This document shows positions 22,009 to 53,402 of a stretch of DNA of 64,000 nt, in pieces. Each line of letters begins with the position of its first letter. Positions within the stretch are counted from its first letter, which is position 1. The notes beneath the pieces are model-generated. The model worked only from the letters and a program-made list of their open reading frames with translations, did no database searches and had not been told where the DNA came from. Both the position numbers and the translations under genes were made by a program. Location: assembly GCA_043228905.1 (NCBI GenBank), contig JBHGNT010000016.1:9982001-10046000 (forward strand), written 5' to 3'. Origin of the DNA: Azolla caroliniana. Lineage: Eukaryota > Plantae > Polypodiophyta.

Positions 22009-22040
<32 letters not shown>

Positions 22041-26700: not shown

Positions 26701-28563
26701 TGAAGCTTCGCTTAGATTCAGGAAAAGCGTGTGACCCGACACGGTTCCGACAGATTGTCGGAAGCCTCTTCTATTTGACTCTTACTCGGCCGGACCTCAG
26801 TTACCTAGTCGGACTGATTAGTTTCATGTTGCGGCCTACGGCCGAACACTTTTAGTGCGCACAAAGGATACTGCGATATGTTAGCGGCACGAAAGACATG
26901 GCGTTGCTATATCGAGCAGGCATAGTCGAACAGTTAGTCGGCTACACGGATGCCGATTGGGCCAGAAACGCCCACAATCGTAGATCCACATCCAGATACG
27001 CATTCTCTCTAAGAAGTGCGGCGATTGCGTGGAGTAGTAAGAAGCAGCCGACAGTAGCATTGTCGAGCACGGAGGCCGAGTATCGAGGGGCGACTGTCGC
27101 TACGTGCAAAGTCATTTGGGTAAAACGGCTATTACGGGATCTGCATGTAGAGGTGCCTGATCTGACGACGATCTTTTGTGACAACCTCAGCAGTATCCAC
27201 CTTGCAAAAAACCCCATGTTCCACGCCTGGACCAAGCACATTGAGGTGCATTACCACTTTGTCCGTGAGCATGTCCTCTTCGATGGTTGAACTTCAGCAT
27301 GTTCCAACAGATCGACAGACCGCCGAAATTTTCACCAAGCCCCTTGGTCTCGACAAGTTGCGGCAATTCTCGGGTGCACTTGGGTTGCGACACCTCAATG
27401 TGCCAAAATTGAGGGGAAGAGAAGTCCCGGAAGACCACGGAAGGGAGCAGGAAAGGAGCAGAAGTGACCGTGATGCGGAATCGGATGAAGAATTCGATTT
27501 CGGGCCGGCTGAAGAAGCCGAAGAAAAGAGCAAGGGACATAACCATAGGGAAGAGCCGAGGATAGCCAAATCAGGGGGAGATATAGCCAAGAAGGGCGTA
27601 AAGGCCAAGACCAGGACATGGTCTGATGTAGTCAAAGGCCTAAAGACAGGAGACGAATTGGAGACAACCAATTCGGATGAGAGCGGAATTGAATCAGAAG
27701 TGTTCGATTCAATCGTAATGTTCGATTCGGATACGCCGAAACAACTGAAGGCCATGCGGAGGAAAGGGTAGTGAAGGACGCACCGATACCACGACAACAA
27801 GGGAGTTGAGAAGGGCTGGATGGGCAGACAAGCCGTCCGGAAGGGTCGAGGCGCGCAAAAACGAACAAGACGAGGAGCGCGAGCGAGGTGTGAAGCCAGA
27901 AGAAACCGGAGCGGTGATCCGGGAGAACCAGAAGAGCCTCAAGTTGAGCTTGAGGGGGAGTGTTGAAATACAAGCTCAACATAGGCCGGATCGGCTGTGC
28001 AAGCCGAGAAACAAATCGGTTGGGACCGATCGGTTAGGCCAGACCGGTGTGCAAACCGGGTGCGTAAACCAGTGCGTAACAAGAAGCCGTAGCGGTGCGT
28101 AAACCGCGAGGCTGTTGGAAAGATATTCTGCGTAGGAATACATTTTGGGAGTTAGTGTAGAGCTCATTTATGAGCATTGAAGTATGTGTCAGTCCGTATG
28201 GACTTGTATAAAAGTGCTCACTAAGCACATTCTATGTACATAATGAGTATTATTTTTGAAAGTGTTGTGTGTTTTCTCTCTCTCTCTCTCTCTCTCTCTC
28301 AAAGCTCTCTGTAAGTTCATTCTGGCCATCTTTTTCTACGTTCTATATCTCATTGGAAAGCTCTTTGAGAGAGCTTTCTAAAGAATGTTCATTTACTGAA
28401 TTCCGTTACCGTGGCGAGAAGTTATGAGCATTTTCATCCGCAGCCATCTTTGCCCCACGGTTCCTCAAACGGAAGGTAGATTTTGAAGCCCTAAATCGAG
28501 TGAAAGGTACATTCTCTCTCCTTCCCTCTCTGTCTCTCTCTTCCCGTAGGGTTTGTCCCTACA

Positions 28564-29445
28564 ATGGCAAATACTCGTAAAACCGCCGCAAAGTTCAGGG
28601 GTATGATTGATAATGAGCCGAGATCACCAACAAATCTTGATTCTAATGCAATGGACAAAATGTTTATGAGTCACTTGATTTCTCTTCAAGAAACCATAAA
28701 CAAGCAAGGTGAAGAGATTAGGACGTTAATGAAAGAGAATACTAAGCTCCAAAGTGTTGTCATTGAGAATGAAAGTCTTAAACAAGTGGTTGCAAAACTT
28801 CAAGAAGAGATTCAAGAATGTAAAAGAGCTTCTTTTGAAACAAATGAGCGCCTTAACAAGATTGAGTTAATGCTTCAGTTAAAGGAAGCATTAAAAGAAG
28901 AAAAATTGGACACGATGAGGCGGGATGTAAGTGAGATGAAAAATGTATGTACAACGAAATCATGGGCCGATGTATGTGGTGGGGATGTGCTATCAAACTC
29001 ATCTAATATGCATGTGATGCATCAAGAGAAGAATATAGAAAGCATAGATGTCCGAGAATTGAAAGAACGTGAACGACGATCAAAGAACATTGTCATCCGT
29101 GGGATTAAAGAAGAGAGTATGGAAACACCCGCATCCCTTGCAAAGGCCATTGGTGAATTTTTTAGCATGCATTATGGGATGTTAGATGTGAATGTATATG
29201 GGGCACACCAAGTTGGGAAACATGGTGTTGCTTGCTCCGGAGAAAGGCTTATTGTATGCACAATGACAGATGATACAAAGCGGCGGATCATACTCGAAAA
29301 TAGTTGGGTATACCTCAAAGGTACACAATGCTTTGTGAGTGAAGATCATACTATCTCACAACAAAATGCTTGTCGTAAAGCATATGAGGAAAGATTGAAA
29401 AATAAGGTTAAGGATGTGCCTAAAGATGGAAATGTAGGCAAATAG
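28564..29445 (+). CDS. LINE-B ORF1 (coiled coil plus RRM-like)
   Basis: Heptad-rich N-terminus, ERERRSKNIVIRGIKE and LKGTQCFVSEDHT, typical of LINE ORF1. Confidence 0.85.
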   Translation: MANTRKTAAKFRGMIDNEPRSPTNLDSNAMDKMFMSHLISLQETINKQGEEIRTLMKENTKLQSVVIENESLKQVVAKLQEEIQECKRASFETNERLNKIELMLQLKEALKEEKLDTMRRDVSEMKNVCTTKSWADVCGGDVLSNSSNMHVMHQEKNIESIDVRELKERERRSKNIVIRGIKEESMETPASLAKAIGEFFSMHYGMLDVNVYGAHQVGKHGVACSGERLIVCTMTDDTKRRIILENSWVYLKGTQCFVSEDHTISQQNACRKAYEERLKNKVKDVPKDGNVGK

Positions 29446-29451
29446 GGACAC

Positions 29452-30591
29452 ATGATCTATGAGACTAACCCACGCCTTTTACGACTATGCTTTTGGAATT
29501 GCAATGGATACCCATGGAATGCGAGATTTGGCATAGAGGAGTTCACCGATGACTCGGATATTACACTTCTTGTTGAAACATGGGAGCATGATACTCAAAG
29601 GATTCAAGGTTTAGGAAACTATAATGTACACTCTTTGATATGGAAGAAAAATCCAAGACAAAGAAGAGGACAAGGAGGGGTGCATTTTTTATTAAGAAGG
29701 AAATAGAGAAATATGTGTCAATCATAAAAAATGATGAAAATAAATGCTACATATGGATCAAAATAGAAACACCTAATGATTTGCCCACTTTTGTAGTTGG
29801 ATGTTACATTCCTCATCAAGGTTCTAACTTTTATGCTTGTTTGGATAAAGATCAACCGTTTGCCAATCTACAAGATGATATTGCTTATTTCAAATCCAAA
29901 GGGCAAGTTATTGTCTTTGGTGATATGAATGCTCGTACAAGAAGTTTCCAACTTGATTCACAAGAATCTTTCATGCCACATATCTCAAGGATGCAAGAGG
30001 ATATGCAAATGTATAACCGCTCTTCTAACGATACAAAAGATCCGGAGGAATTTGGGAAGTTACTCCTACAAATGTGCAATAGTACCGGATTGCTTATTGC
30101 AAATGGTATTTCCTTATGGCCCAACACTAATGGTTTTACATGTAGAAAACACAACGGAAATAGTGTGATTGACTATGTGCTACTTTCCGAAAGTATTTTG
30201 GATCGTATACCTAAATTCTCACTTGGTGAATGGACACCGGAATCTGATCATAGGCCTTTATGTATTGATCTCAAATGTATGCATAAGTTTGATTGTGAGA
30301 AGGCTATTGAAGATAATAAACAACTGCACTTGAGCATGAACCTTAAGTGAGCACCCATGTATTCCAAGATGGTTGAGGATATGTTACAAATGACAAAGAT
30401 ACAACATGGTGCCACACTAGAATGCAAATGGGAAGCTTTCAAGAAAGTCATTCTCTCATGTACAAACAAATGTTTTTCGACCAACCGCATATCTTGGAAA
30501 TGCACCAAGAAACTTAGGAAAAAATGGTTTGATAAAGAATGTCGTGAAGCTCGAAAGTGCCTTATGGTTTTGGATGTAGTTAAGGATAAAA
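29452..30591 (+). pseudogene. LINE-B ORF2 N-terminus (AP endonuclease)
   Basis: WNCNG, LVETW, GQGG, GDMNAR, SVIDYVL, SDHRPL, KWFDKEC. One frameshift and one stop. Confidence 0.9.
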
Positions 30592-31114
30592 GCATGCGAG
30601 TGGAAACACTATTATAGCTAATTAGCTACTAAAATGGCCATAGCTAATTAGCTATTTGTTTAGCTAGTCTTTTTTGTGGGAAAATCAAATATTTGAAAAA
30701 CTAATTTATGAAAAAACTCAAATATTTGAACTTCTGTTTCAGACGTAGTGGAACTTGGGGAATAACACCATCATCTAAGGTCGACTTCAATGTCATCAAT
30801 TGCCTGTTTAGCCTAAGTTTGATTTTGAACGTAGATGTAGCTCCTGCAACAGTAGAAAATCGACATTGCAGATTGAGAGCTACAACACCGAACCCGCTCG
30901 ATCATCGTCTAGGTATGTTTCAGTTACAAAAACCCCAAACATTTGTTTTTTCTTTTTGACTACTGTCTGAACTTTGGTGCCGATTCATATTTCCCCAAAA
31001 TCAAATAGGGCGAAGTCCTTGGAGTCCCATACAAGGATGTCTCGCAGATCAGGGAGTAGCAGCAGGTGTGTTTATATTACTTTTTTTGTGTTTAATCCTG
31101 TCTTTAGTGATAAT

Positions 31115-31620
31115 TGGGGTTTTTGATTACGGTTTTTGTTTATAAATTTCTTATTAGAATTTTTTATTAGGGTTTGTGATTGAAATTTCTGATTAGGGTT
31201 TTTGATTGAAATTTCTGATTAGGGTTTTTTATTATAAATTTCTGATTAGAATTTCTGAATAGGGTTTCTGGTTACAAATTTTGATTACAGATTAGAATTT
31301 CTGATTAGAATTTCTGAATAGGGTTTTTGTTTATAAATTTCTGTTTAGAATTTTTTATTAGGGTTTGTGATTGAAATTTTTGATTAGGGTTTCTGATTGA
31401 AATTTCTGATTAGGGTTTTTGATTATAAATTTTTGATTAGAATTTCTGAATAGGGTTTCTGGTTACAAACTTCTGATTACAAATTTTGATTAGGGTTTCT
31501 GATTTCAAACTTTTGATTACAGATTTTGATTAGGGTTTTTGATTTCAAATTTCTGAATACAAATTATGATTAGGGCTTCTAATTTGTTAAGTTAAAGATT
31601 TTGCACTATTTCTGATTTCT
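31115..31620. repeat. Intronic degenerate array of 11-13-bp units rich in TTAGGGTTT (telo-box)
   Basis: Alternating gattagggttt / gattgaaatttc / gattagaatttc units inside intron 31066-31635. Confidence 0.85.
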
Positions 31621-32973
31621 GAAATTATATTTCAGGTGGTTCGTTCCTCCGTATCCGAGAGTGCTAAACTTTGCAAAATTTTGTGAGACAAAGGAGGACT
31701 TCCACAACACCTATGGTCTGTCACTCGAGGGTGTTGACCCTACTGTCCTAAGTGATAAATTGATCAGTGATGTAGACTGGATGACAGTATATACAGTGCC
31801 TAGAGTCAAAGGCAAGGTCAAGTTGAAGCATGTACGAGCTGACTTGTACGATGACTGCATGAGGCTGCACCAGAAAGTTCATCAGGAGATCCTAGTCAAC
31901 AATGAGTTGTCAGTTTCATTTGCTAGAGCATTTGCATATGAGTACTGCAAAACAACGAAGGAATCCAGAGAGCCTGAAATGTATAGGGTAGCTTGGGCAG
32001 TCTATGGTGAGGCATCGGTAAAAAGATGCCGAAAGATGGGAACCTTGGCAAAAAAAAAAGACAGATTTTGGAGCATGGCAGCTGTTGATGCAACTGCCGA
32101 CTCCCAACAAAACCAGGGGCATACACCAAACCGACACCCAAGGAAAGCCAATGTCGATGATACAGGTGAGACATTGGTTAGTTATATGCTAAAAAATGTC
32201 CATGAAGCCTGTGAGACATTGGCATTTTTTAAGACTGATTTAGAGAAAGCCACAATGGCTTCTGCAATGGAGAGCAAAGTTACTTCCGTTGTTACAACGA
32301 TTAGAAATAAGATTCAGGTAACTATTGTTTTGCTGGTATGTGATTGTGTTATAAATAACTTTAAGGGTAAAATGTGCTAATCAAGAATTATCTGGAATAG
32401 GTTGCGCAACAGGATCTTGAATTAGAGGGGACATTGGATCCCCAGCGTAAAATACAACTGCAAATAGAGATCTAGGTTCTTTCAATGAACTTGGACCTTC
32501 TAGGTGTAAATACTGTTGCAGATTACAATTTGGAAAAGCTTCAAGTAAGTTAACGATTCCTAAGCAAAGTTGGTGTATCTTTCTCAGACAGGAATAATTA
32601 ATCGGTAAATTTCTCTGTTGCTTGAAGGAACAATAGATTCATCAAGAACAGGTAGTTAGTTGCCTTAAGAAGCAGCTACATTTTGTGGAGGGAATGGTAA
32701 GGACCAGACAAGATTTGGACTTGAACATTCTTGCTCCCTTACCAAATGAAGGAGAACCAGAAAATGATTTATTGACAGTTCAAGCACGTTGCATTGCTTG
32801 CGGGTTAGGTGTGGAGGACAAAACTGTGTCTTTGTTGGTTCACCTACAACCATGCAACCACACATACCATCTGCTTTGTTTTCAACATGCCTGTTGAATT
32901 GCTGCATTCTGTTTGGGAGATTGCAATACAACTCTACCAAATGACTGGAGAAAACTAACAGGTATACCATACT

Positions 32974-34014
32974 GTAGCTAATAAGCTTAGTCTTTTCTAA
33001 TTAGCTAAGCCGTAAAAAGTATGGAAACTATTTTGCTGCTATCGTTGTAGCTAATTAGCTACTACCATAGTTGATTAAAGCAGCTAATAGCTATCCTTTT
33101 AGCTAATTAGCTACTGCCATAGTTTACTACATTAGTTAATTAGCTAAGTGGCAGCTAGTTAGCTACTAGCTAATTAGCTATCCTACTGACATCTAATTAG
33201 CTACTGGTAGCTAGTTAGCTACTCATAGCTAATTAGCTAGTACCATAGTTGTGTAAAGTAGCTAATTAGCTATCCTACTAGCTAATTAGCTACTGGCAGC
33301 TAATGAGCTACTAGCTAATTAGCAATCCTAGTAGCTAATTAGCTATGATACTAGCTAATTCGCTAGTGCCATAGTTGTGTAAAAAAGCTAATTAGGTATC
33401 CTACTAGCTAATTAGCTACTGGCAACTAATTAGTTATCCTAGTAGCTAATCAGCTATCCTATTAGCTAATTAGCTATCCTACTAGCTAATTAGTTACTGC
33501 CATAGTTGTGTAAAGTAGCTAATAAGCTATCCTAGTAGCTAATTACCTATCCTACTAGCTAATTAGTTACTGCCATAGTTGTGTAAAGTAGCTAATAAGC
33601 TATCCTAGTAGCTAATTAGCTATTGGCAGCTAATTAGCTATCCTAGTAGCTAATAAGCTATCCTAGCTACTACATAGTTGAGAAAGTAGCTCATTAGCTA
33701 TCATTGTAGCTAATTAGCTATCCTACTAGCTAATTAGCTACTGCCATAGTTGTGTAAAGTAGCTAATAAGCTATCCTAGTAGCTAATTAGCTACTGGCAG
33801 CTAATTAGCTATCCTACTAGCTAATTAGCTATTGCCATAGTTGTGTAAAGTAGCTAATAAGCTATCCTAGCTACTACCATAGTTGAGTAAAGTAGCTAAT
33901 TAGCTATCGTACTAGCTAATTAGCTATCCTAATTAGCTATCGTACTAGCTAATTAGCTATCCTAGCTTCTACCATAGTTTAGTAAAGTAGCTAATTAGCT
34001 ATCCTAAATAGCTG
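32974..34014. repeat. Intronic array of palindromic TAGCTAATTAGCTA motifs
   Basis: Dozens of copies with atcctac/actgccatagttgtgtaaag spacers, inside intron 32962-34028. Confidence 0.95.
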
Positions 34015-36212
34015 CCATGTTATTGTAGAATCTTGTGGATTAAGGACGGCACATGATGTGTCTGGTGCTGATGACGCTGCAATAGATGAGGATACTGCTG
34101 CCAACGTGGCTGAAAGTAAGAGTCCTGCTATCACATCTCCTTCAGATCAGCTCCACCCTATTCTTTTGAAACAGTGTACTGAATTAGGCAACGATGTGAA
34201 ATGCCATGAAATAGTGGAAACAAGTAAAATTGAGTTCACCACAACAATGTTTATGAACACTTGATGCAACATTTCTTTGAATCTCAAGACCTTGATTCCA
34301 ACCCACCGAGCCCAACTACTGAAAATGTCCAAACAGATCCCTCTGTACTTCAAAAGCTAGTTCAAGAAATGACTGATGTGCAATTAGCTGCTGAGGCGAT
34401 GGGAAGGTTGTCGGAGGAGGACACACTTGCACATTGGGTGAAAGAAGCAAGGCTAAATGGAGAACCGACCAGAAAAAGGCTGAAGAACGGGCCACGATCG
34501 GGAACAAGACCAATTACTCGGTCAAGGGGCCCAGACGTAGTGGAGCAAAATACTGTTTAGTTGGATATGATTGTTAGCTTAGGGATTTTGCTAGGGTTTT
34601 ATGAAGTTTTACTATCCTGTTGGACAAGTAAAACCTCATATTGGTTGTTGCTTGATCCACATTATGTAATGGAACTCTATGATGTTTTTCCAAGATAATT
34701 TGAAGAGTGTTGTTCTATGACTGAAACTCTTTGGTGTTCAGGATGTTGTTTTGTGAGTCTGTTAGTTACTTTGTGAGTGTGAATATGTTGGTGTTTTCTG
34801 ATGTTGCAGAGTCTAAAGGGTTTGATTCTATTGCTCGTAAGGCCAATGGCAGTGTGGATACTGTTGATGTTGCAACGTGTTTAAAGGGCCCCATCTTGAA
34901 AGTAGATGTAGCAATTGACACAAGTGATCTGGTCACACAAGTTGATGAAGCATGTTGCACGGATGACTTGGTGTTGCGGGTAGATGTAGCATGTGATACT
35001 AGTGGACTGATATCGAGCAGATCAATAGCTACATGCACTGAGGTAATCCAAGGATTGATAACTAAGTCGACAAAACAAGAGCACCAGAATGTGAAGCCAG
35101 GCCCAACACAGTCGACTAGGGGTTTGAAGAGGAAAGGGACGCCAGTTGTGTTGGCCGAACCTGAGCTGATTGAGATTGATCGTGTCCTACTAGAAAATGG
35201 TGTAACAGCGGCTCAGTTTCAGGAATGGAAACCTAAACCACTAGAAGTCGAAAGAAGAGCCTTGATCTTGGAGCTTGATAAAGTCTTGATGAGTGTGAGA
35301 TATATGCAGCCAAGGAGGGACGCGAATTAGTTTCTAGAGTGGGCTGTGCAATACTTTGATTTGTTTATTTGGAGTGAAAAACCAAAATCAGATGTGTGGA
35401 AGTGTTTAGCAAGATTCTTCCCAAAATGGCGAAGTCGTTTTAAAGGTCAATGGGCACGAGAAAATTGTGAGCAAATGGAAGCTGCAACATTCAAGAGACT
35501 TTCTAATTTTTGGGCTACTTGGCCTGAATATAATGCCGACAACACATTGATTTTAGATACAGAACATTTCCGGCACTACTTCAATATTCGGAGATGCTGT
35601 CTCATTCTACCCGAGGAAATGCATGAACGGTACCTAGTGCAAACAATGAGCTGCCAACTAGGTGCATGGTTGTGGACTCCATACCGAGCTCGATATGCAG
35701 ATAATATATGTAGACTCGTTCCACTGACTAGCAAGAGCTTAATTGTTTATAGGAGATTTGTAGACATTTCCAATGGTAATTTATAAATATGTAAAGAGAT
35801 GACATTATTCAATGAAGAATTTAATTACTTGTTCCCACTGTACTTATCTACTGTGTAATTTGAGGAATATGTTGCAGATTGTTGATTTCATGCTATTGAT
35901 GACTATTTAGCTATTGACAGCTAATTAACTACATTTGTACAGCTAATTAGCTACTGATGACTATTTCGCTATAACTTATAACTTAAAACTTAACAAAAAA
36001 GACATGATTTTATTGAGAAAGAAGCACAGAAAGCAGACTGTATACAAGAAATTGATTCTCAAACGAATTTATTTAATTGTTTTCGCGAAATACATGTTTG
36101 TTTTACAAGAGAACATGGTAATTGCTACTTGTAGCTACAAATTCCATGTCATACTATTGTAAATACATTCATACACATTAGCACCAACAATGTATAAACC
36201 TGAGCAGCTCTT

Positions 36213-39200
36213 CTATTCTGACATTGGGACGTTGATGCACCTGACCAAATGAGAGTACATGTACGCCGCTGGTTTGTCTTCTAGCAGCCTGCACACATAT
36301 TCGTAGTCATCTAGTTTTGCATAAAAAATGCCTTCGATGTAGAATGTCCCGGCAGATACAAAATTTCCCCATACATCTACAATATTCTGCCTTGCACATT
36401 GTTTACTAACCGTGCACTTCAATATATAGAAATCATCACCCTCTGAATTTCCTTCTTCAGCATTTACATCTAAGTTATCCCCAACGTTCAAGACATCACT
36501 CAAAGTATCTCCAAGTCCCTCATATGTGAAGTCAACATTCTGCCCTGTTTCTCCATCAACTGCTTCCTTATCATTCAAAGTGTGATGCTCCCAATTCTGA
36601 ATGTATGCTTTGTTTAGACAATATCTCCAATTTCCCTGCACACAATGGAAGCAAAAACAAGTCAATTCTCTAACCGCAATACAATGACCATCCAACCTGG
36701 AATAACCGCGAACAGCATGCAGAGATCGCAATTCGGGAATTCCTTGGCACTCCCAGGTCTTCTCCCTATTTACTTCATCTATCTTCACTTCCCAAAATTC
36801 ACGTTTGATATCTTGGACTTGTGAGGAATAAACACCTGTTGCACTCGTTGACATATTTGTTCTTAAAAATTCAACTACATGTGATGCACAATTCATGTGC
36901 ACACCATCTGTCTTTAGTTGTTCATGGGTAAGTGCCCGCTTTATAACAGCCCTTGCACCATCATGTTCACCTTTACCATGGCCAGACCCAAAAAAATTCC
37001 ATCTCATCTCCAAACTTGTTATAGCAGGATACCTCCCCACAAAATAAAATGGACGTCGAGCCTTGAATTGTGACGCAGCTCCGTCAGACTAGACCCAATG
37101 TTGAGTAAGCTCCAAACGTTGAGCTAATAACCACTGCCAATGTAACTTAAAACAATGTTGGACGAACAAGGTATCATGCTTCTTATCATCAGAAATAAAG
37201 AAATGAATTACTTTTTTAACATCACCTGAAACTCGAAAATATGTTATGTGCACAAAAATGGTTACCTGAACTGAACACCAATGCATAGATTGAATTTCAT
37301 TCTACTGCTTGAAAGTATAATTCTCTGCGAAATCTACTACTGAGACTACTACATCATCTGGGAAATCAGATATGCAAGTCTTAAACTGATGAGCCTGCCA
37401 TGAATAAATGAAGTTGTGTTTAATGAACTTTCGTAGAGATACTACAAACAGAGACACCAAATCCCTTGGTTTAAGCATCTTCCGAACTAGATCCTTTCTT
37501 TTACACACCTTTCCTTCAAAATTGGTGTTCACTGACTCAAATAACTTCACAGAGATCAATATTTCACTACTCAATTCATTTGGACACCACCTAAATCTAG
37601 TAGGGCCACAATCTTGACATAAACCCATGGCACATTTATGAATATGGAAGATAGGGTCAGTTTCTCTCGGACACAATATTGAATCTAATAAATAACTCAT
37701 GGAAGAGATAACGTGCTCAGATGATTTACACTCCTCTTGTGGGCTTGATCGACAGATTGGGCACCCACATGTGCAAACTGTATTAGTTAGGGATGCGTCA
37801 TGGTGACGTAGTAGATTAACAGAGTCCTTCAGAAAACCCATCTGTACATGGTAAATGCAACAACATGTGTATCAATCCTTTAAGCGTCTCACAAAGTGTG
37901 GCTTCAGAGACTCGAATGTTCGTAGTTGAACTTTGATATTTGGATGCATTCGTTTGAACCTAATAAATAAATCGACCTGCGTAATAAAGGGGAATTAGTT
38001 ATTCTCGTAACTAGCTAACTATCCTAGTAGCTAATTAGCTCTTCTAGTAGCTTATTAGCTATTCTAGTAGCTAATTAGCTATCATGGTAGCTAATTAGCT
38101 GTCCTAGTAGCTAATTAGATGTCCTAGTAGCTAATTACCTATCATGGTAGCTAATTAGCTATTCTAGTAGCTAATTAGCTACTCTAGTAGCTAATTAGCT
38201 GTCATGGTAGCTAATTAGATGTCCTAGTAGCTAATTAGCTTTCCGCTTTCCTAGTAACTAATTAACTATCATGGTAGCTAATTAGCTAGTCTAGTAGCTA
38301 ATTAGCTACATGGTGGCTAATTAGCTGTCCTAGTAGCTAATTAGCTATCATGGTGGCTAATTAGTTGTCCTAGTAGTTAATTAGCTATAATGGTAGCTAA
38401 TTAGCTTTCCTAGTAGCTAATTAGCTGGTAATAATGAAATTAGCTATCCTAGTAGCTAATTAGTTGTCGTGGTAGGTAGTTAGCTATTTGGTAGCTAATT
38501 ATCTGGTAGTAACTAAAATAGCTATTGAGAATAGCTAATTAGCTATCATGGTAGTAGCTATTGAGAGTAGCCAGTTACCTATGTAGTAGTTATCCTAGTA
38601 GCTAACTAAGGTAAATGTAACTGATAAGCTAATTAGCTTTTCTGCTAACTGAGCTAATTAACTTTCCGTGTAGAGTCAACAAATGTTGAGATAAATGTAA
38701 ATACCTGAGGTAAATCAAGAAGATGAATGGGATGCTCCTCATATTGATTTCTTCCAACACGTTTCCTGCATAAATCCTTTTTATTGGGTGAAACCCTACT
38801 CTCATTAGTCCAAAACATTGTGATTACATCCTTGATTTTTCAAATGTTATGGGTGTCATTGGCTTACATCTTGTAGTTAGCTTTAGTAGATTAGTTCCTT
38901 CACCCGAGGAAATTATATGGTTCATTGTATTGTACACTGTTTTTCTACTAACACCAATTACCTTAGATAGCTCACTGATGTTTATATCGTCAACATCACT
39001 ATTAAGTAACATCATTAGACTAGACCTTTTTAAGACAAGATCATCTTCTGACCTGCTCATGGATACGAAACTATTACGAAGATTATTTACTAAAACAGAT
39101 GATATGTTTGCATTAAGACCATCACAATCAACTAAGTCCTTTATCGATGGATCATTACATATTCCATAAAGTACTACCTTCTTTTCTTCATTGCTGATGT

Positions 39201-40730: not shown

Positions 40731-40776
<46 letters not shown>

Positions 40777-40923: not shown

Positions 40924-40997
40924 TCCCTACTAGTCTCCCTCTTCCTTCTGTCTCTCTCCTTTCCTACTAGTCTCTTATTTCCCTTTTCCTTCATCCC

Positions 40998-42207: not shown

Positions 42208-45200
42208 ATCTGTGCAGCCCATTAGTGGTTCCATTCCCTCTAAGCAAGTTAGTGATGTGTTCGTAGTCCAAGTAGCAGTTAGTACTAAAAGTACCCCTCC
42301 AGTACATACCTTAGCCCTTCTAGATTCCGGAGCTAATTCTTGCTTCATGGATAGGAATTTTGCCCGAGCTCATCAGATATCTCTCAGAAAGCTCCCATGT
42401 CCAGCCTCAGTAGTAGTCATTGATGGTCGTCCCATTGCTTCTGGTAATATCATAGAAGAGTCGGAACCCGTTAATATTGTCCTAGATAACTTAACATGTG
42501 TAGTATCATTTAATATTATTAGTATTCCAGAACATCCCATAGTTTTAGGATTACCATGGTTCGAGTTACATGACCCAGACATAGATTGGAGGACAAGGGA
42601 AATCCGGTTGCGACAAACCCAAGGATCTACCCAGAAGGTTGCAACCATTTCGCTACGTCAGTTGCGTGAGGAAGGGCGCAAGGAGGAAATGTTTCTCTTT
42701 GCAATATCAGTACAACCCTCCAGCACCACCAAAGAGGAGTCCACCGTTCAACTTCCCGAGAAGTATCGTCAGTATGCTGATGTGTTCGATAAAGTACAAG
42801 CCAACACACTTCCTCATCATCGGCCGTACGACTGCGCCATCGACTTACAACCGGGAAAAGAGCCGCCATGGGGGCCGATCTACAATTTGTCACCAACCGA
42901 GCTAGAAGTCCTTCGAGCCTATATAGAGGAGAATTTGGAGAACGGTTTCATTCGGCATTCGAAATCTCCAGCCGGCGCACCCATTTTCTTCGTCAAGAAA
43001 AAAGATGGCTCGCTTCGACTCGTTGTAGATTACCGTGGCTTGAATAAGGTCACAGTAAGAAATAGGTATGCTCTTCCCCTTATCTCAAGTCTTTTAGAAC
43101 GGATCAACGGTGCCAGGTTCTTCACGAAGATCGACTTACGAGGAGCCTATAACCTCGTACGGATCCGACCAGGAGATGAATGGAAGACCGCGTTTCGCAC
43201 CAGATATGGGCACTTCGAGTATACGGTCATGCCGTTCGGACTCACTAATGCGCCGGCAGTCTTCCAGCACATGGCGAATGATATATTTCGAGACCTCTTG
43301 GATGATTTTTTGATCATCTATTTGGATGATCTACTGGTTTATTCAAAGACCCAAGAAGAACATGATTCTCATGTACTATTAGTACTAAAACGACTTCGAG
43401 AACATGGTCTGTATGCAAAGTTAGAGAAATGTAGTTTCGGGTGCAACCAAGTGGAGTTTCTCGGCTATGTCATCTCCTCAGAAGGCATATCTATGGACCC
43501 AGCCAAGGTCAAAACGGTGATAGAATGGCACACTCCGCGTTCGGTGCGGGATGTGCAATGCTTCCTAGGCTTTGCAAATTTCTACCGGAAGTTCATACAA
43601 AATTACTCAAAAATTGTGCTGCCTCTCACACAGCTCACCAGGAAGGGACAATCATTCATTTGGTCTAAAGAGACGGACATGGCTTTCGAGAGTCTTAAGA
43701 AGGCGTTTACATCAGCTCCAATTTTAGGTCATGTGGATCCGGAAAAACCATTCATTATCGAAGCTGATGCATCGGATTTCGCATTGGGGAGCATTCTGTC
43801 ACAACAGGGTAACGACGAGAAGCTACATCCTGTGGCTTTCCACTCCCGTAAGTTTGACGCCGCCGAAATCAACTACGAAATTCATGATAAAGAGCTATTA
43901 GCAATAGTTGATTCTTTTATGCAATGGAGGCATTTCCTGGAGGGATCTCCTCATCAGGTCACTGTATTCAGTGACCACAAGAACCTTGCCTACTTTCAAG
44001 ATGCTCGTGTACTGAATCGACGTCAAGCTCGGTGGGCCCATTTCCTCACACGCTTCGACTTCAAAATTACATATCGTCCGGGGAAGCACCAAGGGAAGGC
44101 AGATGCATTATCACGGCGTTCGTATCTAACACCACGTCCCGGTGAGCCAGCTTTCGATAACCAGAAGCAAGTAATCTTGGGTCCAGCACGACTGCAAGCA
44201 GCACAGATCTTTGACATGCCCGTGGATTCCGACATTACCAATACTATACGTGAGGACTTGAAGACTGACGCTTTCGCCCAAGCTATACTAGCACAAATTG
44301 ACCCCTCTCGAGCGTCATGTTCACAATCACAATCACCAGGTACGGATTATCGGCAATTCAAATACTGTGATGGATTACTCTTCTTTAAAGAACTTTTGTA
44401 TGTTCCTAATGGTTCTTGCCGCCTTCGAGTAGTACAAAACTGCCATGACACATATACAGCAGGACATTTTGGTAGTACTAAAACATTAGATTTAGTACAA
44501 CGATCATTCTGGTGGCCCCGTATGCGACAATTTGTCGAAGATTTTGTTCGGACTTGCGATACATGCTGCAGAGCGAAAATGCCAAGACATCATCCATATG
44601 GTTTATTAGAACCATTACCAATTCCAAGCAAGCCATGGCAATCCATTGCTCTTGACTTCATTACAGATCTTCCAGTCTCTAAGGGATTCAGTGCGATTCT
44701 CACAGTGGTGGATCGATATACGAAGATGGCTCATTTCTTACCATGTACTAAAGAAATATCTAGTGAAGACACCGCCGAAATTGTCATGCGGGAAGTATGT
44801 CGGCATCATGGACTCCCTGATAATATCATCAGCGATCGTGGACCCCAGTTTGTGTCAAAATTCTGGAAGCACCTTTTTAAAATGCTGAAGGTCACTTGTA
44901 ACCTCTCCTCCGGCTACCACCCACAAACCGACGGTCAAGCCGAACGAACAAATCAAACACTGGAGCAGTATCTGCGGTGCTTTCTCAACTATCATCAGAA
45001 TGACTGGGCAGATATTCTTCCGTTCGCCGAATTTGCCTATAATAACGCTATCCACGCATCGACTAAAGTCACGCCATTCTACGCTTATACGGGATATCAT
45101 CCCCGGTGGTGTGTCCTTGAAACCCCAGAAGTGTCCACAAATCCTTGCGCGGAGGATCGTTTGGAGCGGTTACGCAAGATACAAGCGGATTTATCTACTC

Positions 45201-45751
45201 AACTCCAGCAAGCTCAACAATCACACAAGGACTACGCAGATCGTCATCGACTTCCATCCAGTTTTAACATTGGAGATCGGGTGTGGCTGCTACGACGACA
45301 CATCAAGACTACTCGCCCATGTGAGAAGTTGGATTATCGACGATTAGGTCCTTTCCGTATTATCGGGAAGATTAATGATGTCGCTTTTCGTCTCGAGCTA
45401 CCTCCGCAACTTCGGATACACCCGGTGTTTCATAGTTCTCTCCTCGAACCCTATCACGAGAGCACTATCCCAGGACGTACTATACAACCTCCACCTCCTA
45501 TCGAGCTCGAAGATGGACCTGAGTATGAGGTCGCTGCCATCCTCGATTCCAAGATTGTTCGCAACAAGCTCTACTATCTAGTCGATTGGCTAGGATATAG
45601 TCCCAGCGAGCGTACTTGGGAACCGATCGAGAATGTGACCAATGCTCGTGCTCTTCTAGAAGACTTCCATCGACGATATCCCGAGAAACCGGGTCCTCAA
45701 TCCAAAACGACTCGTGAAACTCGTCGTTTTAAAGGGGGGATAGTGTCATAA
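42155..45751 (+). CDS. pol: Chromovirus Pol (PR-RT-RNase H-INT-chromodomain), probably expressed as a Gag-Pol fusion
   Basis: LLDSGA, YLDD, EADASD, H..GHFG..CDTC, DFITDL/SDRG/TDGQAE, GPF, YLVDWLGY..TWEP. The ORF runs a few codons into the 3' LTR. Confidence 0.97.
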   Translation, partial: VKRLSPAKIGAVWLDSPRSVQPISGSIPSKQVSDVFVVQVAVSTKSTPPVHTLALLDSGANSCFMDRNFARAHQISLRKLPCPASVVVIDGRPIASGNIIEESEPVNIVLDNLTCVVSFNIISIPEHPIVLGLPWFELHDPDIDWRTREIRLRQTQGSTQKVATISLRQLREEGRKEEMFLFAISVQPSSTTKEESTVQLPEKYRQYADVFDKVQANTLPHHRPYDCAIDLQPGKEPPWGPIYNLSPTELEVLRAYIEENLENGFIRHSKSPAGAPIFFVKKKDGSLRLVVDYRGLNKVTVRNRYALPLISSLLERINGARFFTKIDLRGAYNLVRIRPGDEWKTAFRTRYGHFEYTVMPFGLTNAPAVFQHMANDIFRDLLDDFLIIYLDDLLVYSKTQEEHDSHVLLVLKRLREHGLYAKLEKCSFGCNQVEFLGYVISSEGISMDPAKVKTVIEWHTPRSVRDVQCFLGFANFYRKFIQNYSKIVLPLTQLTRKGQSFIWSKETDMAFESLKKAFTSAPILGHVDPEKPFIIEADASDFALGSILSQQGNDEKLHPVAFHSRKFDAAEINYEIHDKELLAIVDSFMQWRHFLEGSPHQVTVFSDHKNLAYFQDARVLNRRQARWAHFLTRFDFKITYRPGKHQGKADALSRRSYLTPRPGEPAFDNQKQVILGPARLQAAQIFDMPVDSDITNTIREDLKTDAFAQAILAQIDPSRASCSQSQSPGTDYRQFKYCDGLLFFKELLYVPNGSCRLRVVQNCHDTYTAGHFGSTKTLDLVQRSFWWPRMRQFVEDFVRTCDTCCRAKMPRHHPYGLLEPLPIPSKPWQSIALDFITDLPVSKGFSAILTVVDRYTKMAHFLPCTKEISSEDTAEIVMREVCRHHGLPDNIISDRGPQFVSKFWKHLFKMLKVTCNLSSGYHPQTDGQAERTNQTLEQYLRCFLNYHQNDWADILPFAEFAYNNAIHASTKVTPFYAYTGYHPRWCVLETPEVSTNPCAEDRLERLRKIQADLSTQLQQAQQSHKDYADRHRLPSSFNIGDRVWLLRRHIKTTRPCEKLDYRRLGPFRIIGKINDVAFRLELPPQLRIHPVFHSSLLEPYHESTIPGRTIQPPPPIELEDGPEYEVAAILDSKIVRNKLYYLVDWLGYSPSERTWEPIENVTNARALLEDFHRRYPEKPGPQSKTTRETRRFKGGIVS

Positions 45752-46033
45752 CTAGACTCGAACCCATAACCTTTTGTTACACGGGTCGAGACTTTACCAT
45801 TAGGTTATGAGTTGTAATTTGAAGGATATTATTTTCATTTAGGTTTTATTAGGAAATTGATGTATATTCCAGATTTCTCTGGAACATTCTAGAAACTTCA
45901 GGAGTATTCCTGAAGACACTATAAAAGGAGGCGCAAGGCATTAGTTCGAACCAAATCGGTTCAACGCCAGTCTTAAGCCTTCTAACTACTGTTGTATATC
46001 TTCCGTCATATAATACATATATCTTTCGCATCA

Positions 46034-46087
<54 letters not shown>

Positions 46088-46220
46088 ACTCATTCCTTCT
46101 CTCAAAGTTCGACACCTCTCATAGTACTAATCCTTCTCTGTCTTAGTACTATTCCCCAACAATAGTACTAATCCTTCTTTTAGTACTAATTCCTTCTCTG
46201 CCTTAATAGAGTTCCTGACA

Positions 46221-47935
46221 ATGGGAAGCTACTCAACAATTTATCCAAACGCAAGAGAAAGAACATGCATGTGCTAAATTTTGGGGAAATCTAAAGGGAA
46301 AACGTGTTAAGAGTTATGGTGACTTAACTCTTCACGACTTGTCTATGCATTGTAAGAATTTATATGAGTTATCTCTTGCTGGAAAGATGATGTGTTATGG
46401 TTCTCTTTCACATATGCCTCCTTTCTTTACAATTGAAGATATATGCATAGGACTTAAGAAATTGGCCTCTCGAAAGGCAAGCGATCTTTAATGTATAAAG
46501 GCTAAAATGCTCAAATGGACAGGAAAGGAAGCACATATATGGATAAGTGATATGTTTATGATGCATTGCAACATGGTATGCCATACGATTGGACTACAAA
46601 TTGGATCAAACCTTTACATAAAGGTGGAGATATAAATAATGTAAACAACTATCGAACCATCATGGTTGGCTTATTAATGGCAAAACTATTTGGATGTATA
46701 ATGGAATCAAAGATAAGTGTATGGGCTAAAAAAAGTGGTAAGAGAACCTATGGACAAGCTGGCTTTCGGAAACACCATAGCACCATTGATCACCTTATCA
46801 CCCTTCGAGTATTAATGGAGGAAAGTCGCCTTAGAGGTAAAGGTTTATATTGTTGCTTTGTAGACTTCAAGAAAGCTTTTGATATGGTACCTCGTGAGCA
46901 TCTTTGGAGGTGAATGGAAGAACTTGAGGTGCCAAGTGAATATATGCTTGCAATTTCCCGAATTTATGAGAAGGTTATATGTTGTGTGCGCATGAGAGAT
47001 AAACTTTCAGATTTTTTCAAAAGCACTATTGGTGTTAAGCAAGGATGCCCACTCTCACCAACACTATTTGGTCTATGCATTGATGAATTGGAAGACATGG
47101 TTACCAAGTTTGCAAAGGAAGAATGTGTTGAAGTAGTTGATGTAGTGCTTTTTGCAAATACTTTAGGAGATGCACAAAAGCTTATGAAGGCATTGGAAAA
47201 TTTTTGCATGCATACTAAATTAAGTGTCAATAGCTCTAAAACAAAGATTATGCTTGTGAAGAGCCAAAAAAGAGATAAACCATGCATTATGTACAACAAT
47301 GAGCCACTTGAATGTGTGGAAAGCTTCAAATATCTTGGCCTTGAAGTTCCTTCAAATCATAGATGGAATGAATGTGCTACACGCCGCTTAGAGGTGGGTA
47401 AGTGAGCATATTATGCATTTGAGAACACATGCAATCTTGGAGATATTAAGTGTTGGGTCCTCAAGAAATATCTTTTCGACACTTTGGTTACACTGGTCTT
47501 CTCTATGGGGTGGAAGTATGGGGCGGTAGCATCCCTAAATCTATGTGGAAAGAGTTTGAAAATGTCCAAAAACATTTTCTTACCAAGCTTCTACAAGTTA
47601 AGAAACAAACGTCGTACACCCTCCTCCTCCTTGAGACGGGATCGCTGCCATTGAGATCATGGCCATGGAAAGGGTTGTTGAATACATGCTTAAGGTTCAA
47701 AAAAGTCCCTCNNNNNNNNNNNNNNNNNNNNNNNNNNNNNNNNNNNNNNNNNNNNNNNNNNNNNNNNNNNNNNNNNNNNNNNNNNNNNNNNNNNNNNNNN
47801 NNNNNNNNNNNAGCAGTGGTATCACGCAGAGTACTTCACAACTACAATGTGCACTCTCGATTGCAACATTCATTGGTAAAGTTCTTGAACATCGAGAGTC
47901 ACTACTCACTTTCACACGTATCACGTGAAATGTAA
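46221..47935 (+). pseudogene. LINE-B ORF2 RT and C-terminus (decayed, contains gap)
   Basis: NYRTIMVG, QAGFRK, FVDFKKAFD, GVKQGCPLSPTLF, FKYLG. YADD region partly deleted. Confidence 0.85.
47712..47811. other. Assembly gap (100 N)
   Basis: Run of N. Confidence 1.
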
Positions 47936-48509
47936 TATTTTTGGTCTCATACGTCATATTTGATCTATCTATCTATCTCTCTCTCTCTGTTTTGACCGTT
48001 ACGCGGCCGTCATCTGCTGCCGCCGTCGTCTGCAAGCCGCGCCGCCCTGCCTGTCGCCGCCGTCTGCTGCTGTCGACGACGCCCGCCTGTTGTCGCTGCT
48101 GCTGCTGACGCCGCCGTCGCCTGCTGCCGTCGTCGCCGTCGTCTGCCGGACTGTTTGCCGCCGTCTGCTGCCGCCGTCTCTGTCGTCTGTCGACGGTCGT
48201 CGTCGTCTGCTGCCGCCGTCTGCCGTCTGCCGTCTGCCGACTGTCGCTGTCTGCCGTCACCGTCACCGTTGCCATCTTCTTTCGTCCTACCGTCGTTCTT
48301 GGCGTGTTGTTTGCCGATTGTCGCCGTCCTCGATTCTTGGCGACTTTTATCGTGTGTAGTCGTTGCCCTTCATCGTGGTACTTCACTTACCGGACGACGT
48401 CACCGGCTGAAACAAGCATACATGTGCTTCTACACTCATATCTAGCGCGAAAGACGTCGATGCTCGGCTAAGTTTTTTCTGTCCTTTTGTCTTTTTCTTT
48501 CTTTATCTT

Positions 48510-49313
48510 TTGAATTACAAGATGACTTCTCGACGAAACCATAAGGAAACAAACGAAGAAATTATAAGTAAGGAAGATTTTTTAGATGTCCTTAACCGGT
48601 TCATTAAAATGGAAAAATGGGTGAAAGAAATTGAAGCTGAAAAACAAAAAGACAAGGAAGAAAGAGAATTGCTTATTGCTGAAGTAGCGAAACTTAAGGT
48701 AGATAACGTAAACCTTCGAAAACGAATTAAGGACCTTGAAACATCTAGGGAAGATGGTGAAATATCTTCTCTAGAGGATATTAAGGACGAGATAAAAAAA
48801 GTTAAAGAAGAGGTTAAAAGTGATATGGAACTAACAAAAACTGGGTGGGTTGATGTAGTAAAACGTAATATTAAAAAAGAACTAAAGGACGAAAATATTG
48901 TAAACACTACCCTCGAGGAGGAAAAAATGTGTCAAGCTCGACGCCTAAATGTACGAGTTACTGGGCTCAAGGAAGGGGCATCTCCCGACGAAGATACACA
49001 AACCTTGGGTAAAATGTTGGGATATGAAGCCCTACCAATCACTAAAACTTGGAGGGTAGGGCGTGACACCACTAGGAAAAGAGCTTTAGTTCTTCAATTT
49101 AAGGACTCGGAATCTAGAATCGCCTTTTTTAAAAAGAGACCAATTCTTCGAGGATTGGGCGGGGAGCCCATCTACCTCGATGAAGACTTGACCAAGATGC
49201 AAATTGAGCATCGTAAAACTTGTATGCCGCGAGTCATACAAGCTCGTAAAGAGGGGCATCGTGCCTTCTACCGAGACGGACGGGTCATAATAAATGATCG
49301 CGCTGCCAATTGA
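48510..49313 (+). CDS. LINE-A ORF1 (coiled coil plus RRM-like)
   Basis: RRLNVRVTGLKEG..RALVLQF..IYLDEDLT. First ATG is at 48522. Confidence 0.85.
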   Translation: MNYKMTSRRNHKETNEEIISKEDFLDVLNRFIKMEKWVKEIEAEKQKDKEERELLIAEVAKLKVDNVNLRKRIKDLETSREDGEISSLEDIKDEIKKVKEEVKSDMELTKTGWVDVVKRNIKKELKDENIVNTTLEEEKMCQARRLNVRVTGLKEGASPDEDTQTLGKMLGYEALPITKTWRVGRDTTRKRALVLQFKDSESRIAFFKKRPILRGLGGEPIYLDEDLTKMQIEHRKTCMPRVIQARKEGHRAFYRDGRVIINDRAAN

Positions 49314-49319
49314 CGGCGT

Positions 49320-52300
49320 GTGGCCCATGTGACAAATAATAGACTTAGGATGAGTTTATGGAATTGTAACGGTGCACTTTGGACACACCCTGGCCGTCTA
49401 GAGGAGATTTTGAGGGTATCTGATATACTTTTTTTGGTAGAAACACATCAAAGTCCAAACCGAGGATTACCACGAGTTGATGGTTTTCGTTGGGAATCTG
49501 TCTTTAGACAAACCTCACGTCGACACACTACTAGAGGGTCTGGAGGGGTTGCGATATTATTTCGGAGAGAGATACATAGTAGGATAGAAATACTAAAGAA
49601 AGACCAGAAGCCCGTTTTATGTGGGTGAAAGTACTCACTAGCAAAGATCAGGTGATATTTATTGCCATTTCTTACTTCCCCCCGAAAGGATCTCGGTATA
49701 ATATGGCCGGAGTGGCGAGTATAGTTGATGAAGGAACGCCACATGGGCCTTCTCCATACGAACCTTTATCGGATGACATAATCCGATATTCTTCTCAAGG
49801 GGAAGTCTTCCTTGTAGGAGATTTCAATGCGAGAACCCAATCTCGCCAATGCACAATATTTCAGATGGATAGAAACCTAGAAATGGTGAATGTCGACCCT
49901 TTAGCCTTAGGCATAACACGTACATCAAAAGATCAAGGTGCGGACGCCACAAGCTTTGGCCATCATCTGCTTGAACTTGGAAGCCGACACCAGATGATCC
50001 TATATAATGGCTTAGCCAAGTGGCCGGGCTCGGAAGAGCTCACATGTTTCCCACATGGAGGAGGGGAAAGCACAGTTGATTACCTAATAGGACGCCCTGA
50101 AGCTACCCACATGGTTAGCTCCTTCCGGGTGGCCCCATGCCCCATTGGCGCAGACCATAGCTTCCTATACTTTGAGCTAAAATGTGACGCCTCCCACGCC
50201 ACCAACTCTAGTAAACCAACCCATCGCACTATAATACATTTCACGCATGAGCTCGCTGACATCTATTCTCGACATGTTCAAGCGCATCTCTCCTCTTTTG
50301 ATTCTTCCTTGCCTTTAGAGCACCTCACTACAGAACTCACACACATCCTCCACTCAGCAGCAACTAGTAGCTTCCCATATACGAAAGACTCCAATCATAG
50401 TAGAGTTGGGTCTATGCCACAGAACAAGTGGTATGATGAGGATTGTAGAGAGTTGTATAGACAACTTAAAGTATCGCGGCTTAGTGGTACTATTTCCTCA
50501 GTACAGGCTCGCAAAGAGATGCGCAAGATGACACGTCGTAAAAGACGGGCTTGGGAAGCATCTCAATATTGGGAACTCTACCATATGCTCATGAGTAGGG
50601 ATTGTGCCCTCGCATGGAAGAGGCTACGGGAACCGAGACCACAAACACCCATCGAGGATCCCAATATTTGGCACACATATATTGAGAGACTCTACCATGT
50701 CCCGAACCAACCACCCATTCCAATGCCCTCCACACCTCGACCTACCATGGGGACACTTTTCACGACCTCTAGGGTCACGAAGGTCATCAAAAAATTACAA
50801 CATAGGAAATCCATGGACCACACAGGATTGTGTGCCGAGCACATCATATATGCTCGAGAGTGCCTAGCCCCCCTTCTCGCTCTAATCTTCAACTGCGCCC
50901 TCGCCGAGGGTTTTCCACCACAATGGGCCATGAACACAGTGGCCCCTATACATAAAGGAGGGGACTCAATGGACCCAAATACATATAGGACCGTTATGAT
51001 AGGTCATATGCTCGCTAAACTATATGGTGCAGTAATGGAAGCGGAGCTCAGTGATTATATGGAAACATTAAGTCTTCGAGCACCTGAGCAAGCTGGCTTT
51101 AGACGAGCCTTCTCCACTATTGACCATATCTTCACACTCAGGTGCTTAATTGACCAGACAAAGGCTCGTAAGAAGAAACTATATTGTTGCTTTGTGGACT
51201 TTCGCAAGGCCTTTGACACGGTTCCTAGGGAAAGGTTGTTTGATAGACTTAAGAGCTTGGAGATACCAGATGACATGATCTGGGCCATTTATGCCCTATA
51301 TGAGCAAGTCTCTGGGTGTGTAAGATGCCCAGGTGGCCTATCCGATTGTTTCACTAGCACCATTGGTGTAAAACAGGGTTGCCCCCTATCACCGACTCTT
51401 TTTGGGATCTACATTGATGAGATCACTGATTTTATTGCTCGTAAGGGAGGCAAGGGAGTAGCTATTGGGGAGACGCAAGTTAGTCTCTTACTCTACGCAG
51501 ACGACATTGTCTTGCTCTCAGAGTCGGAACACGACCTACAAAAGCATCTTAATGCCCTGGATGACTTTTGTACACAACGAGGACTGGTAGTGAATTTAGC
51601 GAAAACTAAAGTCCTTATCTTTCATACATCGTCCCGAGTTAGGAGTCAATGTCACCTAATCCTCTCTCATAAACCAGTTGAGGTAGTGGGATCGTATGTA
51701 TACTTGGGAGTCACCTTTAGTGCTCGCTCAGGTAAATTCTTGATGACCCAGGCAGCCAAAGATAGGCTAACGAGAGGGTATGCATCCCTCTCACTCTTAG
51801 AGAGACAATGCCATCAGGCATACTTTCAAGAGCCACGGACTAAGGGATGGCTTTTTGACTCATTAGTGACCCCGTCCCTCATGTATGCATCAGTAGTATG
51901 GGCTCCAGGTTTACCATCTTTCATGTGGACGCAATTAGAGAGACCTTTAGTGACGATGTTATCACGTCAACTCCGAAGCAAATCGACAGTACCACATGAC
52001 ATTATTAGAGCTGAGTTCAGTCTACCCCCGATGTTAGTAGAAGCACTCTTTCAAGTGGTAGTTTTTATTCATCGGATACATAGCCAACCACAAGATAGGA
52101 TATCCCGTCGAGCCTTTGAGGCGTCTCGATCTTTATATGTGTCTGGCGACACTAGCTCTTGGTATAGCATCGTGGTGAGTTGGCTCCGTGCGAACGGCAT
52201 AGACATTAATAACCTACCTCCCCTTAAGTACAACCATGGGACTGATCAAACTTTAATCTCTCACGAAGATCGTAATAAAGTGATACGCCAAGAAATATGG

Positions 52301-53062
52301 CAAATTTACACTCGATACAAATGGATCACCCCACGAGAACCACTCCCATCTAAAATGGTGTACTATAAGGAACACTTCTTGCGCTTCTCTACGCTAGGTT
52401 TTATTACACGACCAAGATATTTAGATACATTCTTATCAAATGCACTAAGGGTGGCCATTGGACAACTTAGGATATCATCTCACCAACTTGAGATTGAGAA
52501 TGGTCGGGCTAATAGAGTCCCTAGAGAGGAAAGGTTATGTAGGTTATGCCACATAGAGATAGAGGATGAGTATCACTTCACATGCAAATGCCCAACTTAT
52601 GCCGAGATACGAGCGGAATACCAAGACATACTAGGACCCTCTCCCACCCTCTCCAAACTATTAGATACCCCGAATGTAAAGAGACTAGGTAGATATATCT
52701 TAGACCTAAAACAACATAGGGAGAATAAATTACAAAGTGCTAACGATAACCCTCTTAGTATTCATCACCATGTAACTAGTGTAATTTTTCAGGAACAAGG
52801 GGAGACGATGAATGTGGATACACTTACGCCGCTCGGCCTCTCCCTTGAGGAAGCAGAAATGCAAAGAACAACGAAACGCCCTCGAATGTTGGGCTTCAAA
52901 ACAAGTCAACGTGGAGTAGACAAGATTAAGAAGATAAGGGAACGTGAGCTACGTCGACTAGAAGCTATGGTTGGGGTACCTCTTACATGGGGACCACGGG
53001 CCACATCCACATCGCAACCCTTTGACCTTCCGCTTCTCTTCGAGAGACTTGGATGGAAATGA
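49320..53062 (+). CDS. LINE-A ORF2: AP endonuclease, RT, C-terminal zinc-binding motif (one frameshift near 49610)
   Basis: WNCNG, GDFNAR, VDY, ADH, QAGFR, DFRKAFD, QGCPLSP, YADD, YLG, SSHQLEIENGR..CRLC..EDEYHF..C. Confidence 0.9.
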
Positions 53063-53402
53063 AAATAACAATTGTATAACACCATTTTCATTGTAGTAGA
53101 ACATGTTTCTATATAAAACATGTTTGTTATTTTTTAGAACTATTTAGCTTAAACTCTATTTTTCATCTTATTTTTATTTTTACTTCGATGAATGGGTAAA
53201 TATCCCATTTTTGTTGTAAACCATTTGTCTCATGGGCCAACTTTGGCCTTAGAAGACGTTAATATTTCTTTCTTTCTTTCTTTCTTTATCTCTCTCTCTC
53301 TCGCTCCTGCGTACTGTGTGTGTGCCCAAGCTCTCCATTAAACCTGTGTTTTCTTACGTTCTTCTTTCTGTTGCTTCCGCACGTTGTTCTTTTCACACTT
53401 TC

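Follow-up and report, generated by a model that had tools for sequence, protein, structure and literature searches.

The window, by which we mean the whole 64,000-nucleotide stretch of Azolla caroliniana DNA analysed here, holds a nest of transposons whose outermost member is a copia element at 21738-53397, with CTTTC on both sides. Its 5′ LTR (21738-22137, + strand) is preceded by CTTTC, followed by the primer-binding-site-like TGGTATCA, and contains an unbroken (CT)13 at 22014-22039, which is the empty-site counterpart of the occupied tract in the 3′ LTR. The left part of the 3′ LTR (27961-28300, + strand) ends in (CT)12 at 28276-28299, and the remainder (53289-53397, + strand) carries (CT)6 at its left end (53290-53301) and is followed by CTTTC at 53398-53402. 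A first-pass annotation of the sequence had this LTR breaking in one CT tract and resuming after another, which is what we see, with CTTTC bracketing the whole. The two copia LTRs align with 30 substitutions in 385 columns. Between the LTR parts the same annotation had placed LINE-B, a CT tract and LINE-A, co-oriented and with (ATCT)n and (CTTT)n tails, and all of these were found in those places.

LINE-B has been split by later insertions. Its 5′ part (28301-30590, + strand; 96.9% identity to the intact copy L116) holds the 5′ UTR, ORF1 (ATG at 28568, stop at 29445) and a decayed APE endonuclease region of ORF2. It is followed by a nested DNA transposon of 9.8 kb (30591-40379, − strand) with terminal inverted repeats, long subterminal arrays of TAGCTAAT and decayed minus-strand ORFs, with a decayed transposase; a motif makes the transposon putatively Sola-like, and a probable 4-bp AATT duplication at its ends is blurred by a small deletion. 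A short LINE-B piece (40380-40440, + strand) separates it from a nested intact chromodomain gypsy element (40441-46220, + strand) with an ATGGG duplication. The gypsy LTRs show 0 substitutions in 468 columns and differ only in the length of their CT tracts, (CT)18 and (CT)22, neither of which holds a LINE. The element is intact and very young, and the start of its LTR has 557 exact matches genome-wide.

The decayed reverse transcriptase region of LINE-B (46221-47711, + strand) runs up to a 100-N scaffold gap and a primer-like stretch of 23 nt foreign to LINE-B (47712-47834 together; stretch at 47812-47834). Judged from intact copies, the gap hides about 540 bp, and LINE-B is colinear on both sides of it. 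The stretch after the gap resembles what is presumably a library-amplification primer; it has 13 exact copies in the assembly, in unrelated contexts (L378-L383), which points to leftover adapter or chimeric joins. The LINE-B 3′ end (47835-47978, + strand) carries a hairpin arm and an (ATCT)4 tail at 47963-47978, and has lost about 20 bp with the GAAGACG motif of other copies. This tail runs into (CT)6 (47977-47988, + strand), where LINE-A starts. LINE-A is full-length (47989-53288, + strand), with a GCC/GTC-rich 5′ UTR, ORF1 at 48522-49313, ORF2 at 49350-53062 with APE, RT and a C-terminal Cys/His motif, a 3′ hairpin with GAAGACGTTAAT, and a (CTTT)5 tail at 53268-53287 followed by AT; one frameshift interrupts ORF2 near 49600. 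Poly(A) reads under the same species label were sparse, fell on both strands and shared neither a start nor an end.

The two LINEs are different elements that arrived separately, as had been proposed from their divergence. Intact copies of A and B encode ORF2 proteins with 31% identity, and the A and B reference DNAs gave no alignment at E<1e-10. LINE-A differs from its nearest copies at 16-17 of 3,914 bases (0.4%), and LINE-B from young copies at 59/2,291 and 37/1,536 (about 2.5%), so that A and B lie sixfold apart in divergence; the copia LTRs stand at 7.8% and the gypsy LTRs at 0%. From the unequal divergences of copia LTRs, B and A, the order of insertion was likely copia, then LINE-B, then LINE-A, with LINE-A entering CT left at the tail of LINE-B. 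A misjoin at the gap or an amplification chimera was considered as the source of the stack and rejected, given that the copia duplication and the colinear LINE-B bridge the gap and that A and B are so unequally diverged.

CT tracts at insertion sites across the genome

Exact 3′-end patterns located at least 720 A ends and at least 638 B ends in the genome, and similarity searches returned 1,631 (A) and 1,726 (B) candidates. We took 158 copies with full flanks, made up of the best 39+39 matches plus 40+40 in chromosome order; because the queries ended where the tail starts, this selection was blind to the flanks. Copies were excluded if unaligned to the reference (7), duplicated (3), gapped at a junction (5), rearranged (17), below 90% identity (13) or below 40 bp (6), which left 107 copies, 90 of them 5′-truncated. 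A truncated copy starts inside the element, and the bases on its left are therefore target. A junction was scored when an alternating CT run of 8 nt or longer stopped within 8 nt of it. This rule-based set replaced an all-against-all extension of 5′ junctions, in which shared CT runs interfered. The background was taken from 20 evenly chosen 10-kb stretches, and a local rate from further upstream in the same loci.

Among truncated copies, CT runs lay at the 5′ junction in 12/37 (32%) for A and 25/53 (47%) for B. The background rate was 123 in 56,600 positions (0.22%) and the local rate 85 in 11,610 (0.7%), and the enrichment at junctions was 150-200-fold. AG, AC, GT or AT runs were at none of the 90 truncated 5′ junctions. 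The position-ordered second sample replicated the bias (5/12 for A, 14/32 for B), and it was still present with diverged and rearranged copies retained (17/61 and 27/63). Full-length copies adjoined CT in 3/6 cases for A and 9/11 for B, and the youngest copies, 99% identical, showed the bias in a single orientation. In a control with the gypsy family of the window, 0/15 insertions lay beside CT or AG runs, and 0/30 young LTR tracts of that family held a LINE. The count of exact tail-plus-CT patterns (34/388) is uninformative because most tails continue.

The preference has limits. A CT run was present on at least one side of 54/88 scored truncated copies, and 34/88 (about 40%) had no long run on either side, lying at short pyrimidine sites or at sites of no evident motif. 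In the 53 scored copies that lack a CT run, pyrimidines still make up 68-77% at five of the final six positions of the flank. CT on the 5′ side and CT on the 3′ side were weakly coupled (19/17/18/34, P=0.12), as expected if one cut with little duplication divides a tract. In the excerpted text of PMC4494074, specificity is recognised when a single repeat type occupies over 20% of flanks, a level that both A (32%) and B (47%) exceed. The CT preference of A and B is thus real, strong and strand-specific yet relaxed, and falls short of strict specificity. The earlier proposal of (CT)n targeting stands in its genome-wide enrichment and has to be loosened to a preference; it had named random flanks, or CT runs belonging to the LINE itself, as findings that would speak against it, and neither was found across the genomic copies.

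Whether the tract is target or tail can be read from sites where the LINE is absent. Both flanks matched one other place in 27/143 copies. Once 8 very short copies that matched themselves are set aside, 19 copies have a paralogous empty site, in some cases a weak one. In the clear cases (L067, L082, L068, L261, L282, L288, L289) the CT tract is already there in the uninterrupted repeat. As paralogues, these sites vary in tract length, and no true pre-insertion allele was seen. Because sister repeats without the LINE carry the tract, the tract is target and not tail, and the two operational signs of targeting, a repeat that pre-exists at the empty site and a fixed orientation, are both present (paralogous sites carry CT; AG in 0/90). 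The 3′ CT of some B copies may be tail-derived, as 11/75 parsed B copies end directly in (TC)n without an ATCT unit. Target duplications were about 0-3 bp. At short sites they were bounded at 0-2 bp (L073, empty site CTCTC), 0-3 bp (L088), 0-1 bp (L068) and 0-5 bp (L296), and at L131 the duplication was about 0 and the target, TCTATC, reads like tail; tail and target overlap at L073, L088, L131 and L296.

The first-pass annotation had further proposed that the lineage, by targeting (CT)n, homes to the LTRs of other retroelements. Many of the LTR families here contain (CT)n, which is why LTRs are hit, and both the apparent homing and the head-to-tail stacks are likely by-products of CT targeting. 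Downstream flanks matched LTR-type repeats of the window in 15/148 copies, and 10/148 showed a primer-binding-site-like motif, with one copy common to both groups. Twelve distinct head-to-tail A/B-type junctions were found among the 148 copies, all co-oriented (B-A 4, A-B 4, B-B 3, A into a B-type fragment 1); the only opposite-strand neighbour, at L066, was not joined through CT. Roughly 5-6 tandems would be expected, a rough estimate from about 136,000 extrapolated (CT)4 tracts and about 3,400 copies, and an extra homing to LTRs or other LINEs beyond CT targeting was rejected on comparing this with the 12 observed. Template jumps may add some tandems, such as L297, which is joined by a bare tail, and L260.

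Several host loci deserve separate mention. A solo-LTR-like insert in the window (TG...CA, 22844-23768) carries a 54-bp array and a (CT)8 tract, and among the hosts that can be recognised, its repeat family holds A and B most often (10/148 copies). At L085 and L104 (also L281 and L286), A and B occupy an identical CT position within a single family of host repeats, with TTTTCGTAAAT... downstream. L260 is an A/B chimera, and among L064, L220 and L252 are two copies with a 5′ inversion and one A nested in another A; together they suggest template switching during reverse transcription.

Clade, protein architecture and known systems

The first-pass annotation had called the lineage plant and RTEX-like, to be placed by a reverse transcriptase/APE phylogeny. 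We built a tree of 162 proteins by a quick method, with SH-aLRT support only and with no named RTEX, RTE or Tx1 row; it placed A and B in one plant clade, which bears out the first half of that label. A and B are sister sub-lineages (SH-aLRT 99 and 96) of a clade (97) with Riccia, Adiantum and Psilotum proteins, and the closest named proteins are from Riccia, Adiantum, Psilotum and Coleochaete. The named fern and liverwort homologues would by themselves suggest a moss or other seed-free plant as host. Fern and liverwort proteins fall within the sub-lineage of B, and the A/B split is therefore likely older than those plant groups. L1-type rows bearing zf-RVT, CR1 rows and rows bearing RNase H fall outside the A/B clade, and the A and B proteins have no zf-RVT domain. 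A grouping with the L1/Tx1 branch was thus not seen, as A and B stand apart from the zf-RVT-bearing L1-type rows in a tree without a named Tx1.

Both elements encode a full ORF1 (263 and 289 aa) and an APE-RT ORF2, an architecture that fits RTEX, and the C-terminal motif SxHxLxxExGR...CxxC...H...C, which may be typical of RTEX, is present in A and B. The parts of PMC3905857 available describe a rudimentary ORF1 for RTE and a full ORF1 with APE-RT ORF2 for RTEX. The 3′ ends are short tandem repeats, (TTTC)n and (TATC)n, rather than poly(A), an RTEX trait in Table 3 of PMC3747384 that is also found in RTE, L2 and CR1 and is not diagnostic of RTEX. From their sequences, and against a tree without a named RTEX reference, A and B likely belong to an RTEX-like fern/liverwort clade. 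The endonuclease is predicted to adopt an APE fold (alignment-based model, pLDDT 93, used in place of a single-sequence fold that reached only pLDDT 39), with the L1 endonuclease as top fold match; its sequence had no match in the PDB. The hairpin loop associated with target choice, given as 9 residues in L1 and 11 in TRAS1/Tx1L in the excerpts of PMC1950540, has 8 residues between anchors in A and 7 in B. The two loop sequences are unrelated, and each resembles that of distant relatives and not the other.

Microsatellite-targeting LINEs are known from a few animal families, and their mechanism is termed poorly understood in the review text available (PMC3812793). Kibi, a teleost Tx1-clade element, is found in (TC)n, and Koshi and crocodilian Tx1 families in (TTC)n and (TTCC)n/(TTTC)n (excerpts of PMC3812793, PMC4494074). 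Kibi resembles A and B as an APE-type LINE inserted in (TC)n. As far as those excerpts describe the Tx1 families, A and B differ from them in their plant host, their position outside the L1-type branch, the absence of zf-RVT, the relaxed preference and their own tetranucleotide tails; a strict, Kibi-like insertion into (TC)n was not observed, as 34/88 copies had no long CT run on either side. Waldo, Mino and Dong are likewise microsatellite-associated non-LTR elements, from other clades, with other repeats and in animals, and the Drosophila elements Waldo-A/B illustrate passive accumulation as an alternative (PMC3812793, in part).

RTEX/RTE-X elements of Marchantia and of green and brown algae share with A and B a long ORF1, an APE-RT ORF2 and microsatellite tails (10.1101/827881, PMC3747384 Table 3, PMC12477816). 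The accessible portions of these sources mention no microsatellite target for them, and the algal tail units listed there differ from those of A and B; the Marchantia RTE-X is described as centromere-enriched (bioRxiv 10.1101/827881). RTE-clade LINEs and SINEs show tail-target overlap, and their 3′ repeat has been proposed to act in site choice or priming; in the excerpts of PMC6007223 they have long duplications (many >13 bp) and a T-stretch signature, in contrast to the dinucleotide tract and duplications of about 0-3 bp of A and B. No plant or RTEX case of microsatellite targeting was found among the full texts searched; Repbase/Dfam and subscription papers, which lie outside that scope, may note one. 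As far as the literature was searched, this is a known behaviour in a new clade and kingdom.

Endonuclease, tail and host in site choice

We consider it probable that a relaxed APE nick of the GA strand combined with pairing of a (CUUU)n or (AUCU)n RNA tail explains the insertions into CT. A loosely specific APE endonuclease, with a modest preference for the purine strand, would nick the GA strand of a (CT)n tract or of a shorter CT-rich site, and the tail would pair with the freed GA end and prime reverse transcription. Each insertion would leave the site usable because the cut keeps CT on one or both sides. In the window, LINE-B likely entered the LTR tract first, and LINE-A later the CT at the tail of B. 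CT targeting of this kind accounts for nested LINE stacks in LTRs, and under it the (CT)n markers and CT-rich 5′ regions of these plants are expected to be hot spots for insertion.

The share of the tail can be judged from relatives. We compared the 3′ ends of 79 related loci from metagenome contigs; those that reach the 3′ end share the hairpin and GACG(T/A)(T/A)AA and end in varied repeats. Tails containing TC, namely (CAAAT)n, (TCATT)n, (ATCT)n and (TCTT)n, are followed by CT at L300, L303, L306, L314 and L319, and no CT follows the TC-containing tails of L307 and L312. In a relative family with (AAAG)n/(AATAG)n tails, (AG)4 followed the tail in 0/12 distinct loci, which argues against tail pairing being sufficient; such tracts are about four times scarcer in the host of that family (6 per 101 kb vs 52 per 200 kb). 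The overlap of tail and target is usually 1-4 nt, which alone seems too little for a 150-200-fold enrichment, and a share of the endonuclease or of tethering is therefore needed.

A rival explanation is an endonuclease that is itself (GA)n-specific, as proposed for Kibi, with the TC-containing tails a consequence and not a cause. We regard this as possible though unlikely. It would explain the strength and strand bias of the enrichment as well as the AAAG-tailed relative without (AG)n flanks (0/12), and endonuclease specificity is the accepted main determinant in the available text of PMC4494074 and PMC3812793; however, about 40% of copies lie outside long tracts, some match the tail instead (L131, TCTATC), and the short recognition loop is not the same in A and B. 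Attraction of the complex by host factors or unusual DNA structure, such as open GAGA chromatin or triplex-prone DNA, with tail pairing setting the orientation, appears improbable. GAGA-binding factors and triplex formation are known at (CT)n/(GA)n, many of the tracts hit lie in LTRs just upstream of the primer-binding site, and full-length B copies adjoin CT more often than truncated ones (9/11 vs 25/53, P=0.049), but the junctions fall within the tract itself and not merely near it, and the young gypsy family shows no bias (0/15). The remaining account, in which the element itself produces the CT runs by tail slippage or by template jumps onto other LINE RNAs, copies collect passively in tracts or the stack is an amplification chimera, is largely refuted and very improbable: it would cover the 11/75 B copies ending in bare (TC)n, the bare-tail tandem L297, the A/B chimera L260 and the 13 primer copies, but sister repeats without a LINE have the tract, the youngest, 99%-identical copies are biased in one orientation, and the window stack is spanned by the copia duplication and colinear LINE-B, with A and B sixfold apart in divergence.

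The young, intact families A and B share the target and the 3′ hairpin motif and differ in tail unit and loop, and with the varied tails of their relatives they form a ready comparative set for asking whether site choice lies with the tail or with the endonuclease; their plant group includes models that can be transformed. For RTE elements, the tail repeats have been proposed to guide cleavage or priming (PMC6007223, in part). A bolder version, which we hold to be doubtful, is that (CT)n targeting in this ancient LINE clade of seed-free plants predates the split of mosses and ferns and has been retained since, with site choice largely programmed by the RNA tail. If so, TC tails would lead to (CT)n and other tails elsewhere, and exchanging the 4-5-nt repeat would send the element to other targets.

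Compared with shuffled sequences the 3′ hairpins are weak (z -2.0, -0.7, -0.2), and the hairpin shared by A and B is retained only as a conserved motif. ORF2 lies in frame behind the ORF1 stop, which is TAG in B, where there is no early ATG, and TGA-CGG in A. Just past this stop, 18 nt are complementary (16-17 of 18) to an arm of the 3′ UTR hairpin in both elements, pairing 29443-29470 with 47940-47960 in LINE-B and 49311-49337 with 53220-53240 in LINE-A, and the complementarity is kept with changed sequence in the relatives L303, L314 and L324.
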